A stretch of DNA of 63,009 nt, filler included, from Candidatus Omnitrophota bacterium (GTDB lineage Bacteria > Omnitrophota > Gorgyraeia > JAGLLT01), in assembly GCA_023140385.1 (NCBI GenBank). It is 5 parts of 5 records of this genome, joined end to end, with 100 filler letters (N's around TTAATTAATTAA, not from the genome) between each part and the next. Parts side by side here need not be neighbours in the genome. Positions count along the whole stretch, not along the records: positions 31,259 to 52,711 come from JAGLLT010000036.1; positions 52,812 to 59,066 come from JAGLLT010000037.1; positions 59,167 to 63,009 come from JAGLLT010000047.1; 2 more parts are not named here. The stretch is one strand, 5' to 3'. Of this stretch, positions 51,001-60,000 are shown piece by piece. How positions within the stretch are numbered: position 1 is the stretch's first letter; the number at the start of each line of letters is the position of its first letter. A program made the position numbers.

Positions 51001-54000
51001 TTAACGAGGGGATTAAGAATGTCCGCGAGAAAGGCAGCGGGGTTTACAGGGAAGGCCCTCATATGCTGCCGGCTGTTTCTTTAATGATTGCCGAGGGGGT
51101 GCTTAAATCGGTCAAGGATTTGAAGAGACCTTTTGTAACTATTGTAAATTCATATACAACCCAAATACCCGGCCACGCCCACCTTAATCAGCTGGGAGAG
51201 GTTTTGAAAAAGGAGCTTGAAAAGCAGGGGGTTAATGTCTGGTACGCTAATATTGGGGCGGCAATATGTGACGGTATCGCCATGGGGCATTTTGGGATGA
51301 AGTATTCTCTGGCTTCAAGAGAGCTGATTGCCGACCAGATAGAAAGCATTATTGGCGCTCATCCGTGCGACGCCTGGATTGGCCTGGGAAACTGCGATAA
51401 GATAGTTCCCGCGATGTATAACGCTATGGCCAGGATAAATATACCCGCTATTTATGTAAGCGGCGGGCCGATGCTGGCCGGTTGCGGCAATACGGACCTG
51501 ATTTCTATTTTTGAAGGGGTAGGTAGTTACAGCGTCGGTAAAATGAAGAAAAAAGAGTTAGAGAAGTTAACGGAGACGGCTTGTCCCGGTTATGGAAGCT
51601 GCGCGGGGATGTTTACGGCAAACTCTATGAATTGCCTCGGAGAGGTGTTAGGTTTTGCTCTGCCCGGGAACGGGTCGGTGCCCGCCACCAGGAAGGTAAA
51701 AGGTAAGACAAGGCAGTTTCAGATAAATCCCCAGAGGATCAAACTTGTGAGAGAGGCAGCCCGGCGAGTAGTCTATCTTATGAAAAAGAAGATAAGGCCT
51801 CTTGATATTTTAAAGAGACATTCGATTGACAACGCCTTTATTCTGGACATGGCTATGGGCGGCTCAACCAATACGGTTTTGCATATTCTGGCTCTTGCTC
51901 ATGAGGCGGGGATAAGCTATGATCTTAAACGTTTAAATGAACTGGCGAAGACGACAGCTAATGTAGCTAAGATTGCTCCTTCGCGCCCCGAGATACATTT
52001 AGAACACGTCCACAAGGCCGGCGGCGTGGGGGCCATATTGAGAGCGGTTTATGAAGGCGGCAAGACACACCTGAACCTTCAGGCAAAGACCGTCTACGGC
52101 AAGCTGGGTGATTATGTTTTGAAATCTCCTAAGCCTGACGGCAGGGTTATAAAGTCTGTTAAAGATGCCTTTTCGCCTGAAGGCGGGCTGGCGGTTCTTT
52201 TTGGCAATATTGCCAGAAAAGGTTCAATAGTGAAGACCAGCGGTGTTGATAAGGATATGCTGAAATTTAAGGGTAAAGCAAGAATATATGAGTCCCAGGA
52301 GGAAGCGCTTGATGGGATACTAAAAGGCAGAGTAAAAAGCGGTGAGGTGGTTGTTATCCGCTATGAAGGCCCCAAGGGCGGCCCGGGCATGCAGGAGATG
52401 CTTTCACCGACTGCCGCTATAAAGGGGGCGGACATTAAAGCCGCCCTGATTACCGACGGCCGTTTTTCAGGAGGTACCAGGGGTTTGTGCATCGGCCACG
52501 TATCACCCGAGGCGGCGGCGGGAGGGGAGATAGGGCTGTTAAGAAACGGCGATATAATAGAAATTGACGTCTGCAAAAAACGTATGAATGTAAAACTAAC
52601 GAATGAAGAGTTAAAGAAAAGAAGAAGAAAACAAAAACCATTTAAGTCAAAGGTAAAAGGCGGCTGGCTGGCAAGATATTCATCGCTGGTGACCAGCGCT
52701 GATACGGGAGCNNNNNNNNNNNNNNNNNNNNNNNNNNNNNNNNNNNNNNNNNNNNTTAATTAATTAANNNNNNNNNNNNNNNNNNNNNNNNNNNNNNNNN
52801 NNNNNNNNNNNCAACCTTGCCAAGGTTGATGTCGCGGGTCCGAATCCCGTCTCCCGCTCCATTTTAAATAATAAGGAGCTTTTAAATTGAAAGTAGAAAT
52901 TAAAGACGAAAATCCTTGTAAGAAAATTCTTCGGATAGAAGTTCCCAATGATGTGGTGGAGAGGGAGTTTGACGCGGTTTATAAGGAAATTGGGAAGGTG
53001 GCTGAGATTCCCGGTTTTAGGAGGGGCAAGGTTCCTCGGAATCTGTTGGAGCAGTACCACTCTAAGGCGGCTAAGGACGAGGTTTTAAAAAAACTAATTC
53101 CTACAACATATTCTGAGGCGGTAAAAAAACATGACTTGTATCCGGTTTCTTACCCTGAGATAAGCCAGGTTAAGTTTGTTGATAATCAGCCGCTGTATTT
53201 TGAAGCTGTTATTGATGTAAAGCCGGACGTAAAGCTAAAAAAATATAAGGGTTTGAATATTGTCAAGAAGAAGTTTGAGATTAAGGATGAAGAGGTAAAA
53301 AAATCACTTGACCTTCTGCGGGACAGATTTGCCGAATATAAGACCATAGATTCAAGGCCTGTAAAAAAAGGTGATTATGTGGTAGCCGATTATGAGTTTG
53401 AGGCGGACGGCAAAACCGAAAAACAGGAAAAAGCCTGGTTTTTAATTAATGAAACCGAGGGCGGCCCGAAGGAGATTATTGAAAAATTAATCGGCGCGAA
53501 GTCCGGCGATAAGATAGAAGGCACCTTGAGCCTTCCCAAAGAGTATCCCAAGGCTGAGTTTGCCGGTAAGAAGGCTGTGTTCAAAGTCAGCGTTAAGGAA
53601 ATAAAGGAAAAAAGCCTGCCCGAACTGGATGAGGAGTTTATTAAGGGGTTGGGGAATTACGAATCGCTTGATAAGTTGAAAGAGGCTATCAGGGATGATA
53701 TAAAGGTAAGAAAAGAAAACGAGATTGAAATGGATGTTGACAGGCAGATAGCCGAAGAGCTGTTAAAGCATAACCCCATAGACGTTCCGCTTTCTTTAAT
53801 TAAGAAAGAGGCTGAGCAAATATTTGAAAATGTAAAGGCGCGGCTTAAGCATCAGGGACTTAAAGAAGAGGCCATAGCATCCAAAGAGGGTGATTTAAAA
53901 AAGAGCGCCGAAGCTGACGCCGAAAAGCAAGTTAAAATTTATTTTCTCCTGGATAAAATCGCGGAGGTGGAAAATATAAATTGCGGCGATGATGATCTGG

Positions 54001-57000: not shown

Positions 57001-60000
57001 AGGACCTGGTTGAGATACCAAAGGATGTTTTGCGAAAGCTTGACATAAAAACGGTTGACGATATCGATCAGGTTTTACGAATCGCGCTGGTTAGCAAAAG
57101 AAGGAAAGGGGCGGCTAAAAAGTCAAAGAAGTCGTCGTGGCAAAAGAGCTATCTGCAGCAGCAGATTATGTCGGCCTGATTTACCGATCGCCGCTTTTTA
57201 ATTACAATAGTTTGTTAAAATAAAGGGTTAAAAATGTTAAAGAAAAGATATTTGTTAACGCCGGGGCCCACTCCGGTACCGCCGGAAAGCCTGTTGGCTA
57301 TGGCTAAACCGATAATTCATCATAGGACTAAAGAATTTAGGGCTATATTGGCGGAGGCGACAGAAGGATTAAAGTATGTTTATCAAACCAAGAGTGATGT
57401 ATTAATATTCGCGTCCAGCGGTACCGGAGCTATGGAGTCCGCCGTATGCAACCTTCTTTCTAAAGGAGATAAGGTTATTGCCGTTTCCGGAGGTAAGTTT
57501 GGTGAGAGATGGGGAGAGATTTGTGAAGTCTACGGAGTAAACGCGCGTATAATTGACGTTGAATGGGGTAAGGCGGTAGACCCGGCAGTCATTGAAAATG
57601 AGCTTGAGAAGGACTCTGAAATAAAAGCGGTATTTACCACCCTTTGTGAGACCTCGACCGGCGTAAGAACTGACATCAAGGCATTAGCTGAAATTACAAA
57701 AGGCCATCAGGCTGTATTGGTGGTAGACGCTATAAGCGCTGTGGGGGCGGAGGGGCTAAAGACAGATGAGTGGGGAGTTGATGTAGTTGTGGCCGGCTCT
57801 CAGAAAGGCTTGATGATTCCTCCGGGGCTGGCGTTTGTATCTTTAAGCGAAAAGGCTTATAAGTTGACAGGGGCTTCTGATTTGCCCAAGTATTATTTTG
57901 ATATAAAAAAGGCCAAAAAATCTATCGAAAAAGGTGATACTCCGTATACACCCGCGGTCAATCTTGTGGTAGGCTTAGTTGAAGCATTAAGGCTTATTAA
58001 AGATGAAGGCATTGAGAATGTAATAAGCAGGCATCGGCTCTTAGCTGAGGCGACAAGGGAAGCGGTTAAGGCTTTAGGCTTAGAGCTTTTGGCCCCTGAA
58101 AGCCCGTCTTGTGTTGTTACCGCGGTTAAATTACCCGAGGCGATTGATGGTGTAGAGCTGGTAAAAAAACTGCGAAGTAAATATGACGTTTGGGCGGCCG
58201 GAGGACAGGCGGATCTTAAGGGAAAAATTATCAGAATAGCTCATCTTGGATATATGAACTGTTTTGATACTATTGTCGGCATATCAGCTCTTGAGATGAC
58301 ATTAAGGGAAATGGGTTATAAGTTTGAACTTGGCGCCGGTGTTAAGAAGGCGGAAGAGATACTTGCCGGTTAATAAAATAAAATGACGGAGATTTAAAAT
58401 GATAAAGATATTAGTGAGCGACCCTCTCGCGAAACAAGGTATTGAGATACTTAAACTGGTAAAAGATTTCCAAGTGGATGAAAGGGCTAAGGTACCTCCC
58501 GAGGAGCTTAAAAAGCTGATAAAAAAATATGATGCCATTATTATAAGGTCCGGCACCAAGCTAACGAAGGATACAATTAAGCATGCCGACAACTTAAGAG
58601 TTATCGGCCGGGCCGGGGTTGGCGTTGATAACGTTGATGTGACGGAAGCTAGTTTAAAAGGTATTGTTGTTATGAACGCGCCGGGCGGAAACACAGTATC
58701 TACGGCGGAACTTAGCTTTAGCCTGCTTTTGGCTCTTAGCAGAAACATTCCTCAGGCAAACGCGTCAATAAGGCAAAATCTGTGGGAGAGAAAAAAGTTT
58801 ATGGGCAGTCAGGTATTCGGGAAGACGCTTGGTATTATTGGAATGGGCCGGATAGGTACTGAGGTGGCTAAAAGGGCGGTTGTTTTTGGAATGAAGGTGC
58901 TCGCTTTTGACCCGTTTTTATCCGCCGAAAAGGCTAAAGAGTTAGAGGTTGAGATTGTCAGCAAAAATAAACTTTTTTCCGCGGCTGATTATATTACGGT
59001 TCATACACCTTTAACCGATGATACCAGACATATGATCGGCAGGAAAGAGTTTGAAAAAATGAAAAANNNNNNNNNNNNNNNNNNNNNNNNNNNNNNNNNN
59101 NNNNNNNNNNTTAATTAATTAANNNNNNNNNNNNNNNNNNNNNNNNNNNNNNNNNNNNNNNNNNNNGGGTTGATGTTTATACTCACAGCGAGATGCTTCC
59201 GGCTCACTATTATCCCGCTTTCAAAAAATATGAACATTTTGTCGGCAACTATGGAAATGCCTGGTGGCAGCAAAATAAAGAGTTCGCGTCATTTAACGGC
59301 CCGATTTTGATGACAACCAATTGCATCACTCCCGTTCAGGATTCTTATAAAGATAGGATCTTTACAACAGGAATGACGGGCTATCCGGGTGTTAAGCATA
59401 TTCCTGATGGGAAAGACGGACAGCAGAAGGATTTTTCTGAAGTTGTTGCCTTAGCAAAAACATGTCAACCGCCGCGTGAAATTGAAAAGGGTGAAATTGT
59501 AGGAGGTTTCGCGCATAATCAAGTACTTGCCTTAGCTGACAAAATTATTGAAGCAATAAAATCAGGAGCTATTAAGCGATTTATTGTAATGGCAGGATGT
59601 GACGGAAGGCATCCTGCGAGAAATTATTTTACTGAAGTCGCGAAAAATTTACCAAAAGATACAATTATTTTAACAGCCGGCTGCGCGAAATATCGATATA
59701 ATAAATTGGATCTCGGTAATATCGGAGGTATTCCCAGGGTACTTGATGCCGGCCAGTGTAATGATTGTTACTCTTTGGTGGTTATCGCGCTTAAATTAAA
59801 GGAAGTATTTGAATTAGATGATATTAATGAACTGCCTATTTCCTTTGATATTGCCTGGTATGAGCAAAAGGCTGTGGCTGTCCTCTTGGCGCTTCTCTTC
59901 TTAGGAGTGAAAGGTATTCGGTTGGGGCCGACATTGCCGGCATTTTTATCTGAGAATGTCACAAAAGTCCTTGTTGAGAAATTTGATATCAAACCCATTG

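Follow-up and report, generated by a model that had tools for sequence, protein, structure and literature searches.

The locus described here is very probably an ordinary tig-clpP-lon cluster in a lineage where clpX was deleted at another site, between tRNA-Gln and glmU, and where der, rnc and mutS-mutL were lost at sites of their own, as parts of a mosaic of gene losses extending across the phylum Omnitrophota. The cluster lies in the window, the whole stretch of DNA analyzed (63,009 nucleotides). The genome it comes from (G000; 92.7% complete, 57 contigs) was compared with the rest of its order, eight genomes in all, each of them a MAG of 83–96% completeness.

The tig-clpP-lon locus

The following features were annotated at the locus:
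52887-54152, + strand: tig (trigger factor), 421 aa; Pfam Trigger_N (131 bits) and Trigger_C (112.8 bits)
54155-54769, + strand: clpP, 204 aa; Pfam CLP_protease (286 bits)
54770-54788, + strand: clpP-lon spacer, 19 bp, containing AGGGAG, a ribosome-binding-like motif
54789-57179, + strand: lon (LonA), 796 aa from the ATG; Pfam LON_substr_bdg, AAA, Lon_lid, and Lon_C
57234-58373, + strand: class-V aminotransferase (AT), 379 aa; Pfam Aminotran_5
58399-59066, + strand: 2-hydroxyacid dehydrogenase (serA-like); Pfam 2-Hacid_dh and 2-Hacid_dh_C; truncated by the end of contig C31

The gene calls, coordinates, and head-to-tail order of tig, clpP, and lon, all on the + strand, were the same as those listed in the genome-wide survey's note. 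The tig stop and the clpP start are 2 bp apart, and since clpP stops at 54769 and the ATG of lon is at 54789, the 19 bp reported between these two genes were confirmed by the sequence. The clpP-lon junction is internal to contig C31 (6255 bp; window positions 52812-59066), away from contig breaks. The ClpP protein scored 320.8 bits against the equivalog model TIGR00493 (cut-off 308.6; profile positions 2–191 of 192). The product of lon was assigned to LonA by TIGR00763 (955.1 bits vs. cut-off 608.05) and NF008053 (956 vs. 891) and showed an N-terminal substrate-binding domain followed by the AAA+ and S16 protease domains. The Pfam search of the tig product gave no match to the PPIase domain at E ≤ 0.001.

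The closest ClpP loci belonged to other Candidatus Omnitrophota MAGs. The order tig-clpP-AT-serA was read in about 30 Omnitrophota loci and tig-clpP-lon-AT-serA in two (L014 and L054); phylum-wide, clpP (or lon) had the AT gene as its conserved right-hand neighbor. Alignments to clpP and lon were 2–35 bp apart in six of the seven other genomes of the order, the seventh (G003) being cut by a contig end. The locus is a tig-clpP-lon-AT-serA cluster that is probably co-transcribed.

What sets this locus apart is lon, a gene that most of the phylum does not have. A single gain by horizontal transfer, with insertion between clpP and AT in a sub-clade of the class, is a minority possibility: LonA, found in 15 of 301 sampled genomes, was confined to the class of the window's genome (none in 74 sampled genomes of other classes, by our own count), and the GlmU+Prs tree is compatible with a single origin of lon. 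Against it, lon occupied the identical place in every Lon-positive genome examined (six other genomes of the order, G031, G232, G184, G261, G101, G183, L014, and L054), and this place just downstream of clpP is also the one that lon has, behind clpX, in many other phyla. Retention is more likely than chance insertion there.

Absence of ClpX, Der, RNase III, and MutS in the order

In the window's genome, the full-length ClpX model TIGR00382 matched only FtsH, Lon, and ClpC. None of the eight genomes of the order exceeded its cut-off, so the absence of ClpX, for which relatives had earlier been searched by the zinc finger alone, holds with the complete model. The reported lack of Der and MutS in all eight genomes was also borne out. 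TIGR03594 (Der) was over its cut-off in none of them, the best matches being MnmE, and the remaining matches in the window's genome were HydF, HflX, Obg, EngB, FeoB, IF-2, and LepA; the KH-like tail of Der had no match in the order. TIGR01070 (MutS) gave 0/8 at E 0.01. RNase III (TIGR02191) was likewise not detected in any of the eight genomes even at E 0.01, and its domain PF00636 had no match in the window's genome at E ≤ 1, and therefore Mini-III, not looked for previously, is missing from that genome too. Searching it by tblastn with the phylum's own ClpX, Der, RNase III, MutS, and MutL sequences yielded no orthologue.

These four absences are supported as genuine losses rather than assembly gaps, because the window's genome is contiguous across the sites at which its relatives carry clpX, der, and rnc, and because families that include single-contig assemblies (G145 and G149) also lack all four. 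Era, which served as a control for the method, is also missing from this genome. It lies beyond the end of contig C26, together with a run of neighbors that are missing as well; unlike the clpX, der, and rnc cases, its absence is an assembly gap.

Probable sites of gene loss

Omnitrophota that keep clpX carry it in a conserved block, ispE-spoVG-tRNA-Gln(UUG)-clpX-glmU-prs-L25-pth-S6. The segment spoVG-tRNA-Gln-clpX-glmU-prs was found in G031, G027, and G090, and clpX adjoins glmU also in G101, G183, and G261. In the window's genome, the corresponding region lies outside the window, on contig C51, where tRNA-Gln (4127-4200) and the start of glmU (4066) are separated by 60 bp. The same clpX-less junction was present in six of the eight genomes of the order, and the other two were cut by contig ends. 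In this order, clpX was very probably deleted cleanly from the tRNA-Gln/glmU block, leaving 55–60 bp. The change is read as loss and not gain on the basis of six ClpX-positive loci and on the premise that the classes are monophyletic; the GlmU+Prs tree did not resolve the deep forks.

The clpP loci of the tested ClpX-positive Omnitrophota contained no clpX, and in all five of the genomes tested clpX and clpP were on different contigs, contrary to the proposal that clpX had been cut out of a tig-clpP-clpX-lon cluster. One of the ClpX-positive genomes, G031, has the same direct tig-clpP-lon-AT-serA junction as the window, with about 46 bp between the ends of the clpP and lon alignments, which rules out the 19-bp spacer as a scar of clpX deletion.

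The der gene was probably lost from between a CDP-alcohol phosphatidyltransferase gene (pgsA-like) and plsY, where it sits in three of four Der-positive loci. On contig C39 of the window's genome, which holds both flanks, these two genes overlap by 4 bp; they are adjacent without der in seven of the eight genomes of the order, and plsY was not found in the eighth (G002). The rnc gene, once beside aroB, appears to have been replaced by an outer-membrane-barrel gene. G031 reads aroB-rnc-GNAT, and this single RNase III-positive genome defines the GNAT flank; the order reads aroB, an OMP-like ORF of 266 aa, and GNAT. Both flanks are present and contiguous on contig C14 of the window's genome, and the OMP-like gene was found beside aroB in six of the eight genomes. 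Its product, which has a signal peptide and ends in Phe, is a secreted PF13557-type beta-barrel protein (feature score 0.98, TM 0.86). Finally, two relatives from family f4 carry mutS-mutL behind rpoA-rplQ; only the left flank is conserved, and the pair may have been lost from this site.

Distribution across Omnitrophota

Gene families were counted over their cut-offs in 301 Omnitrophota genomes at least 85% complete, only four of which were from this order. Totals were 65 for ClpX, 82 for Der, 90 for RNase III, 119 for MutS, 14 for LonA, and 293 for McsB. All four of ClpX, Der, RNase III, and MutS were present in nine genomes and none of them in 96; neither ClpX nor LonA was found in 223 (our own arithmetic), and HslU would presumably also have matched at the E-value of the ClpX search. 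Contrary to what had been suggested, the fourfold loss is no mark of the order; most of those 96 genomes are without Lon too, a gene that the order keeps. The losses very probably belong to a phylum-wide mosaic of housekeeping genes, present or absent family by family and each with its own pattern, in which this order represents one combination, with LonA retained and no ClpX, Der, RNase III, or MutS/MutL left.

Alternative explanations

The earlier reading, in which clpX was excised between clpP and lon with a 19-bp scar and the fourfold absence sets the order apart, has some points in its favor: the clpP-lon spacer is short, the order does lack these genes, and tig-clpP-clpX-lon was found in the fetched loci of Deltaproteobacteria, Gammaproteobacteria, Betaproteobacteria, and Heliorestis. 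The statement that clpX normally sits at this place accordingly stands for Deltaproteobacteria, Firmicutes, and other loci fetched, but not for Omnitrophota. With the direct junction of G031, where clpX is elsewhere, the syntenic gap on C51, and the 96 sampled genomes that share the same absences, we regard this reading as highly improbable. No more credit can be given to an artefact, that is, to genes lying on unbinned contigs or being too divergent for the models. The 57-contig assembly is incomplete, contains no rRNA primer sites, and did lose Era through a gap; however, it is contiguous at the clpX, der, and rnc sites, the phylum's own queries matched nothing in it, and the bacterial controls responded as expected. 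Furthermore, presence goes by whole families, all or none: none of the five genes, LonA included, was found in f21 (0/9 genomes; with the single-contig G149) or in f25 (0/3; with the single-contig G145).

Another explanation is that the activities are not missing, unrecognized analogues standing in for Der, RNase III, or ClpX. Non-homologous replacements lie beyond the reach of profile searches, and a different gene does now occupy the rnc position. That gene, however, encodes the secreted beta-barrel protein rather than a nuclease, at the der site the neighbors overlap by 4 bp and no new gene has come in, and the order showed no match to the KH-like Der tail. We consider such replacement unlikely.

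ClpC, McsA/McsB, and predicted cell functions

Genes for an McsA-like protein, McsB, and ClpC were located at C10:16215-20265, as previously claimed. McsB scored 452.9 bits with the equivalog model NF002194 (cut-off 385). The McsA-like protein, encoded directly upstream of mcsB, reached 170.3 bits with NF053706, below the cut-off of 210, over positions 1–181 of 182. ClpC was the sole Hsp100 gene found in the genome, in agreement with its description as the only Clp unfoldase. It has two AAA+ modules and a short middle domain and aligned colinearly with B. subtilis ClpC (PDB 3j3s) in one alignment (residues 3–821 vs. 2–806; 1097 bits); ClpB structures aligned to it in two stretches only. The (I/L/V)-G-F loop is the ClpP-docking element, and LGF 686–688 in the second AAA+ module aligns to VGF 671–673 of B. 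subtilis ClpC. Within the GTEH motifs of both N-domain repeats, Glu is kept at the two positions aligned to E32 and E106 of B. subtilis ClpC, which we take to be the pArg-binding residues. From the end-to-end alignment and the LGF/VGF match, we infer that ClpC is the only partner of ClpP, and the suggestion that ClpCP is the sole Clp pathway finds support to the same degree.

In such a cell, ClpP would work only with ClpC, fed by arginine phosphorylation through McsA/McsB, and Lon and FtsH would carry the remaining ATP-dependent proteolysis. Processing of rRNA would rely on RNase Y and RNase E/G (751 and 496 bits, respectively); no RNase J was over cut-off in the genome. Assembly of 50S subunits would proceed with Obg, EngB, and HflX and without Der, and replication errors would go uncorrected by MutSL. 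The evidence argues against ClpC simply assuming the ssrA role of ClpX, although the tmRNA tag of this genome still ends in LAA. We tentatively suggest, as a conjecture of less than even likelihood, that ClpC-ClpP steered by McsA/McsB arginine phosphorylation may be the only soluble AAA+ protease in about three quarters of Omnitrophota, having replaced ClpX and Lon in regulation and quality control, and that 50S subunits may be assembled without Der in as many lineages. If so, the family-by-family differences in ClpX, Lon, Der, RNase III, and MutS content would amount to a natural knock-out panel, in which phylogenetic profiling could trace the compensating factors.

Comparison with known systems

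The scarcity of Der in Omnitrophota has already been published, which removes the novelty of this loss: the Methods of the survey by Seymour et al. (2023; PMC10066038) describe TIGR03594 as infrequent and phylogenetically constrained and exclude it from completeness estimates, thus handling it as a matter of quality control. The main text of that survey, as far as consulted, does not mention Clp, mismatch, RNase, EngA, or arginine kinase, and the eight supplement files seen contain no clpX, K03544, mutS, K03685, or K01338. No description of the broader housekeeping-gene mosaic was found in the literature searched.

Nor is a Firmicute-type McsAB/ClpC set new to diderm cells, considering the frequency of McsB in the phylum and the occurrence of the trio in Chlamydia. 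According to Pan et al. (2023; PMC10128030), Chlamydia trachomatis, like the host of the window a PVC-group diderm with ClpC, ClpP, and McsAB orthologues, has a ClpC that degrades arginine-phosphorylated casein together with ClpP; however, it keeps ClpX, and its mcsAB genes are unlinked from clpC, whereas our genome lacks ClpX and has the three genes adjacent.

The arrangement tig-clpP-clpX-lon is that of E. coli, B. subtilis, and Caulobacter. In the window, tig, clpP, and lon are arranged and oriented in the same way, in a tight spacing that suggests one operon, but clpX is missing from between clpP and lon, and lon is followed by the AT gene and serA. The pArg-ClpCP pathway of B. subtilis is encoded by ctsR-mcsA-mcsB-clpC; mcsA-like, mcsB, and clpC are likewise adjacent in our genome, but the upstream gene is ilvE and not ctsR, the McsA-like protein is under cut-off, and the host is PVC-related and encodes an outer-membrane-barrel-like protein. 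Mollicutes are without ClpXP, and the LonA control search gave no match in the Lon-less Synechococcus, Corynebacterium, and Lactococcus. The present case resembles such reduced bacteria in that a "universal" protease or repair gene has gone from a small or specialized genome; it differs in having retained ClpP without ClpX, and in that several such genes have been lost in differing combinations within one phylum.

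Gene organization of the tig-clpP-lon locus

The genome under study (Candidatus Omnitrophota MAG G000; 1.495 Mb in 57 contigs, completeness 92.7%, contamination 0.16%) carries tig, clpP and lon on contig C31 (6255 bp, window 52812-59066), parted from contig C30 by N runs. The features are listed below with NCBIfam scores and the curated family threshold (cut-off) of each model; the gene table of the genome-wide survey's note for tig, clpP and lon proved exact to the base.

52887-54152, plus strand: tig
54155-54769, plus strand: clpP (equivalog score 320.8, cut-off 308.6)
clpP stop at 54769 to lon ATG at 54789, plus strand: 19-bp spacer containing AGGGAG
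54789-57179, plus strand: lon (equivalog score 955, cut-off 608)
57234-58373, plus strand: class-V aminotransferase gene
58399 to the C31 end, plus strand: serA-like 2-hydroxyacid dehydrogenase gene, truncated

A pattern scan of C31 revealed no plus-strand terminator among tig, clpP and lon, and the count of promoter-like sites was not above that in shuffles. The start of the contig (window 52812-52862) resembles the 3' part of a tRNA (end ...GGTCCGAATCCCGTCTCCCGCTCCA) truncated by the contig end. A tRNA at this place was rejected, as neither ARAGORN nor Rfam called it and the loci of five relatives have no tRNA upstream of tig. One tRNA at window 30840-30913 (minus strand) was the sole Rfam match at gathering score across the 63-kb window.

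The nearest public ClpP loci belong to Candidatus Omnitrophota MAGs. Among 80 fetched loci, almost all of those titled Omnitrophota, as well as close unnamed or differently labelled ones, have the order tig-clpP-aminotransferase-serA without clpX or lon; the textbook cluster is therefore not the norm in this phylum. Two of the 80 (L014 and L054) show tig-clpP-lon-aminotransferase(-serA), the same as the window. In the fetched loci of Verrucomicrobia, Planctomycetes, Deltaproteobacteria and others, clpP is followed by a gene of ~415-430 aa, and often then by lon. The tig-clpP-lon locus itself is ordinary.

Absence of ClpX, Der, RNase III and MutS from the order

The order comprises G000 and seven relatives (G001-G007). 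ClpX was searched with the full-length model TIGR00382, the survey having looked for it in the relatives by its zinc-finger domain only; in the control set, 10 of 14 genomes scored over the cut-off, which were all ten bacteria. None of the eight order genomes did so, and the matches in G000 were FtsH, Lon and ClpC only. Der (TIGR03594) was likewise over the cut-off in 0 of 8. The G000 matches to this model were MnmE, HydF, HflX, Obg and EngB, as named by NCBIfam, and FeoB, IF-2 and LepA, as assigned by reading the sequences. HydF, the [FeFe]-hydrogenase maturation GTPase, is encoded at C57:7314-8594 (L099:1315-2595; 524.8 bits, cut-off 325.55), and this full HydF suggests an [FeFe] hydrogenase in the organism. 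RNase III (TIGR02191) and MutS (TIGR01070) were found in 0 of 8 genomes even at E 0.01. The RNase III domain PF00636 had no match in G000 at E<=1, hence there is no Mini-III either, and tblastn with queries from other Omnitrophota revealed no orthologues of ClpX, Der, RNase III, MutS or MutL in G000. The reported order-wide lack of the four proteins was thus borne out with full-length models.

Former sites of the missing genes

The survey's note had held that clpX was cut out of a tig-clpP-clpX-lon cluster. In five ClpX-positive Omnitrophota genomes (G090, G046, G031, G234, G027; 5/5 tested), clpP and clpX lie on separate contigs. The clpP loci of these genomes read tig-clpP-aminotransferase-serA, except that of G031, where lon directly follows clpP (tig-clpP-lon-aminotransferase-serA). 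Because G031 bears clpX and has the same clpP-lon junction, the 19-bp spacer does not mark a lost clpX. The block ispE-spoVG-tRNA-Gln(UUG)-clpX-glmU-prs holds the gene in G031, G027 and G090, with two extra genes separating clpX from glmU in G090; in G031 and G027 the block extends through L25, pth and S6. In G101, G183 and G261 clpX also adjoins glmU. The corresponding G000 block lies outside the window, on contig C51 (4705 bp):

C51:4215-4694: spoVG
C51:4127-4200: tRNA-Gln
C51, start 4066: glmU, then prs, L25, pth, S6

The distance from tRNA-Gln to glmU is 60 bp here vs. 1290 bp with clpX in G031. The same tight junction of ~55-60 bp is found in six of the eight order genomes (G000, G002, G004, G005, G006, G007), the locus being broken by a contig end in the other two (G001, G003), and in the ClpX-negative genomes G011, G014 and G184 of three other families, of which the G184 locus was placed without a tRNA scan. 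This is positive evidence that clpX was deleted between tRNA-Gln and glmU. The G031 junction, the unlinked clpX in 5/5 genomes and the C51 gap together overturn the excision proposed downstream of clpP.

In three of four Der-positive loci (G234, G255, G183), der is flanked by a CDP-alcohol phosphatidyltransferase gene and plsY, and in G255 gpsA comes next. In G000 the two flanking genes overlap by 4 bp (C39:36062-36616 and C39:35442-36065), and seven of the eight order genomes have them side by side with no der in between; the search of G002 gave no plsY.

The order aroB-rnc-GNAT occurs in G031, and aroB adjoins rnc in G045 and three genomes of family f8 too. At the loci of all order genomes examined there, rnc is absent beside aroB. 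In G000 the gene next to aroB (C14:15063-16166) is a 266-aa ORF that occupies the rnc position of relatives (C14:13951-14751, minus strand, locus L137:1952-2752, outside the window), and the GNAT gene comes after it; six of the eight order genomes have this ORF adjoining aroB. We considered it as a divergent or replacement RNase and rejected this, since it had no Pfam match in the HMM search, carries a signal peptide and a C-terminal Phe, and was likened by the protein atlas to PF13557 outer-membrane barrels (feature score 0.98, TM 0.86); it is no nuclease. Such a secreted beta-barrel-like protein also points to an outer membrane in G000.

Two members of family f4, G161 and G014, carry mutS-mutL after rpoA-rplQ, and Pfam confirmed the MutL of G014. 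Downstream of rplQ, G000 has two genes for ABC permeases, so that this site is conserved on the left flank only.

The four losses are real and rest on these syntenic scars. With scars this clean, and with the genes equally absent from single-contig assemblies, an assembly artefact is hard to invoke. Era served as a control for such an artefact. It is missing from G000, and in G005 and G003 it is encoded a few genes beyond the homologue of the gene broken at the end of contig C26. C26 ends at ~23025 inside this Era-neighbour gene, and G000 also lacks most of the genes that intervene or follow (loci L152, L153). Era is thus missing through a break in the assembly rather than by gene loss, and its site looks unlike the three scars; other absences in this MAG call for the same care.

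Distribution across the phylum

The same set of 301 Omnitrophota genomes (completeness at least 85%) was searched for every gene. Scores over the cut-off were obtained for ClpX in 65, Der in 82, RNase III in 90 (102 at E<=1e-5), MutS in 119, LonA in 14 (15 at E<=1e-80) and McsB in 293 (299 at E<=1e-40). Within families, presence is near all-or-none and the pattern is gene-specific, as three families illustrate.

Genomes positive in three Omnitrophota families
f4: ClpX 0/20, Der 20/20, RNase III 1/20, MutS 20/20
f9: ClpX 5/5, Der 0/5, RNase III 5/5, MutS 0/5, Lon 5/5
f14: ClpX 0/49, Der 1/49, RNase III 1/49, MutS 8/49

By cross-tabulation of the listed positives at each search's E-value rather than the family cut-offs, 96 of the 301 genomes lack the whole set of ClpX, Der, RNase III and MutS, and only 9 have all four. 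Each of the 74 genomes of other classes has at least one (counted by hand from the rows); therefore all 96 lie in the class of the window, Gorgyraeia (227 genomes). Families f21 (0/9) and f25 (0/3), to which the single-contig assemblies G149 (2.0 Mb, f21) and G145 (1.6 Mb, f25) belong, lack these four and LonA alike. Neither ClpX nor LonA is present in 223 of the 301 genomes (78 have either, as 72 + 15 - 9 shared, at listing E-values); hence the order is not the most eroded but is among the few lineages with Lon. The fourfold loss had been taken as a mark of the order; it is instead part of a mosaic over class and phylum.

Some Omnitrophota (e.g. G072:C25, G080:C18, G096:C50, G064:C69, G210:C42) encode a second ClpX-like ORF of ~515-580 aa, which covers ClpX positions ~45-408 at ~290-310 bits, below the cut-off, and has no zinc-finger region. 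No other ClpX-like match was obtained in G210, G064 or G062.

The unusual gene at the tig-clpP-lon locus is lon. Its slot is constant (tig-clpP-lon-aminotransferase-serA) in every Lon-positive genome examined: six other order genomes, with clpP and lon alignments 2-35 bp apart (in G003 the contig breaks off within lon), as well as G031, G232, G184, G261, G101, G183, L014 and L054. Lon-negative genomes have tig-clpP-aminotransferase-serA. We favour an ancestral tig-clpP-lon from which most Omnitrophota later lost lon, because lon follows clpP (via clpX) in many phyla. A single gain of lon in a sub-clade is a less favoured but tenable reading: a GlmU+Prs tree, built to see if families with Lon or with ClpX group together, showed the order as monophyletic (SH-aLRT 100) and left the deeper forks between families unresolved, which leaves room for one acquisition. 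Under the favoured ancestral arrangement, clpX would have stood apart from tig-clpP-lon before the phylum diversified.

Clp proteolysis and RNA processing

The only Hsp100 gene of G000 is clpC. The survey had placed McsA, McsB and ClpC at C10:16215-20265; the location, McsB (453 bits, cut-off 385) and ClpC held, and the McsA-like protein remained below its cut-off (170 bits vs. 210). The gene order there is ilvE, the McsA-like gene, mcsB and clpC. ClpC and ClpP are a textbook pair. The G000 ClpC aligns end to end with Bacillus subtilis ClpC (PDB 3j3s; 1097 bits), has a short middle domain, and its LGF at 686-688 aligns with the ClpP-docking VGF 671-673. Both N-domain GTEH motifs keep Glu, at the positions of the pArg-binding E32 and E106 of B. 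subtilis. The McsA-like gene and mcsB lie directly upstream of clpC, and ClpC-ClpP fed by arginine phosphorylation is likely the sole Clp protease of G000; Lon and FtsH would act beside it.

The tmRNA tag of G000 is AETQVANVLAA and that of the ClpX-positive G031 is ANELALAA, both ending in LAA (loci L164-L168 and G000). Among ClpX-negative genomes, ARAGORN predicted a long tag without the LAA end in G145, a short and odd one in G011 and no tag in G149; it predicted none in the ClpX-positive G027 either. This may reflect drift of the tags where ClpX and Lon are absent, or poor prediction.

For RNA processing, G000 encodes RNase Y (751 bits) and RNase E/G (496 bits), with no RNase J over the cut-off, and the GTPases Obg, EngB and HflX. 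Five universal rRNA primer motifs had no match in G000, hence there were no rRNA flanks in which to seek RNase III stems.

Discussion

All four missing proteins, ClpX, Der, RNase III and MutS, count as near-universal; several model bacteria cannot live without Der or ClpX, and Der serves as a standard marker of genome completeness. Seen more widely, the pattern is a new, well-documented case of reductive housekeeping-gene loss. That ClpX, Der, RNase III, MutS and LonA come and go family by family in a free-standing phylum is a warning for marker-based completeness estimates, and the mosaic offers a comparative system for what renders housekeeping genes dispensable. The locus also shows that a short spacer at the expected place of a textbook gene is no proof of local deletion before relatives are compared.

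According to the Methods of Seymour et al. (2023; PMC10066038), TIGR03594 is infrequent and phylogenetically constrained in Omnitrophota and was removed from the marker set. The same Methods report that PF02978 (the SRP54/Ffh signal-peptide-binding domain) occurs in one Omnitrophota genome only and that PF13603 is infrequent, which would make these further "universal" markers missing from the phylum. The main text of PMC10066038 has no mention of Clp, mismatch, RNase, EngA or arginine kinase, and part of its supplement none of clpX, K03544, mutS, K03685, TIGR03594 or K01338; the remaining supplements may bear on this. The literature searched held nothing relevant on ClpX in Omnitrophota (one unrelated paper) and nothing on McsB in Omnitrophica; for a natural lack of ClpX, the matches listed all dealt with mutants or mitochondria. 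Of the four surprises in the survey's note, two have precedents in print; its observation and the losses themselves stand, without the excision at this locus, the restriction to the order and the novelty of those two.

The pArg-ClpCP route has been studied mainly in Gram-positive bacteria, and in this phylum it may act as a diderm's chief cytosolic protease. Whether ClpC-ClpP with McsB plays this part in most Omnitrophota is the most interesting question raised by the wider pattern. Chlamydia likewise has ClpC with McsAB but keeps ClpX (Pan et al., 2023, PMC10128030). According to that study, Chlamydia ClpC with ClpP degraded pArg-casein and not ssrA-GFP.
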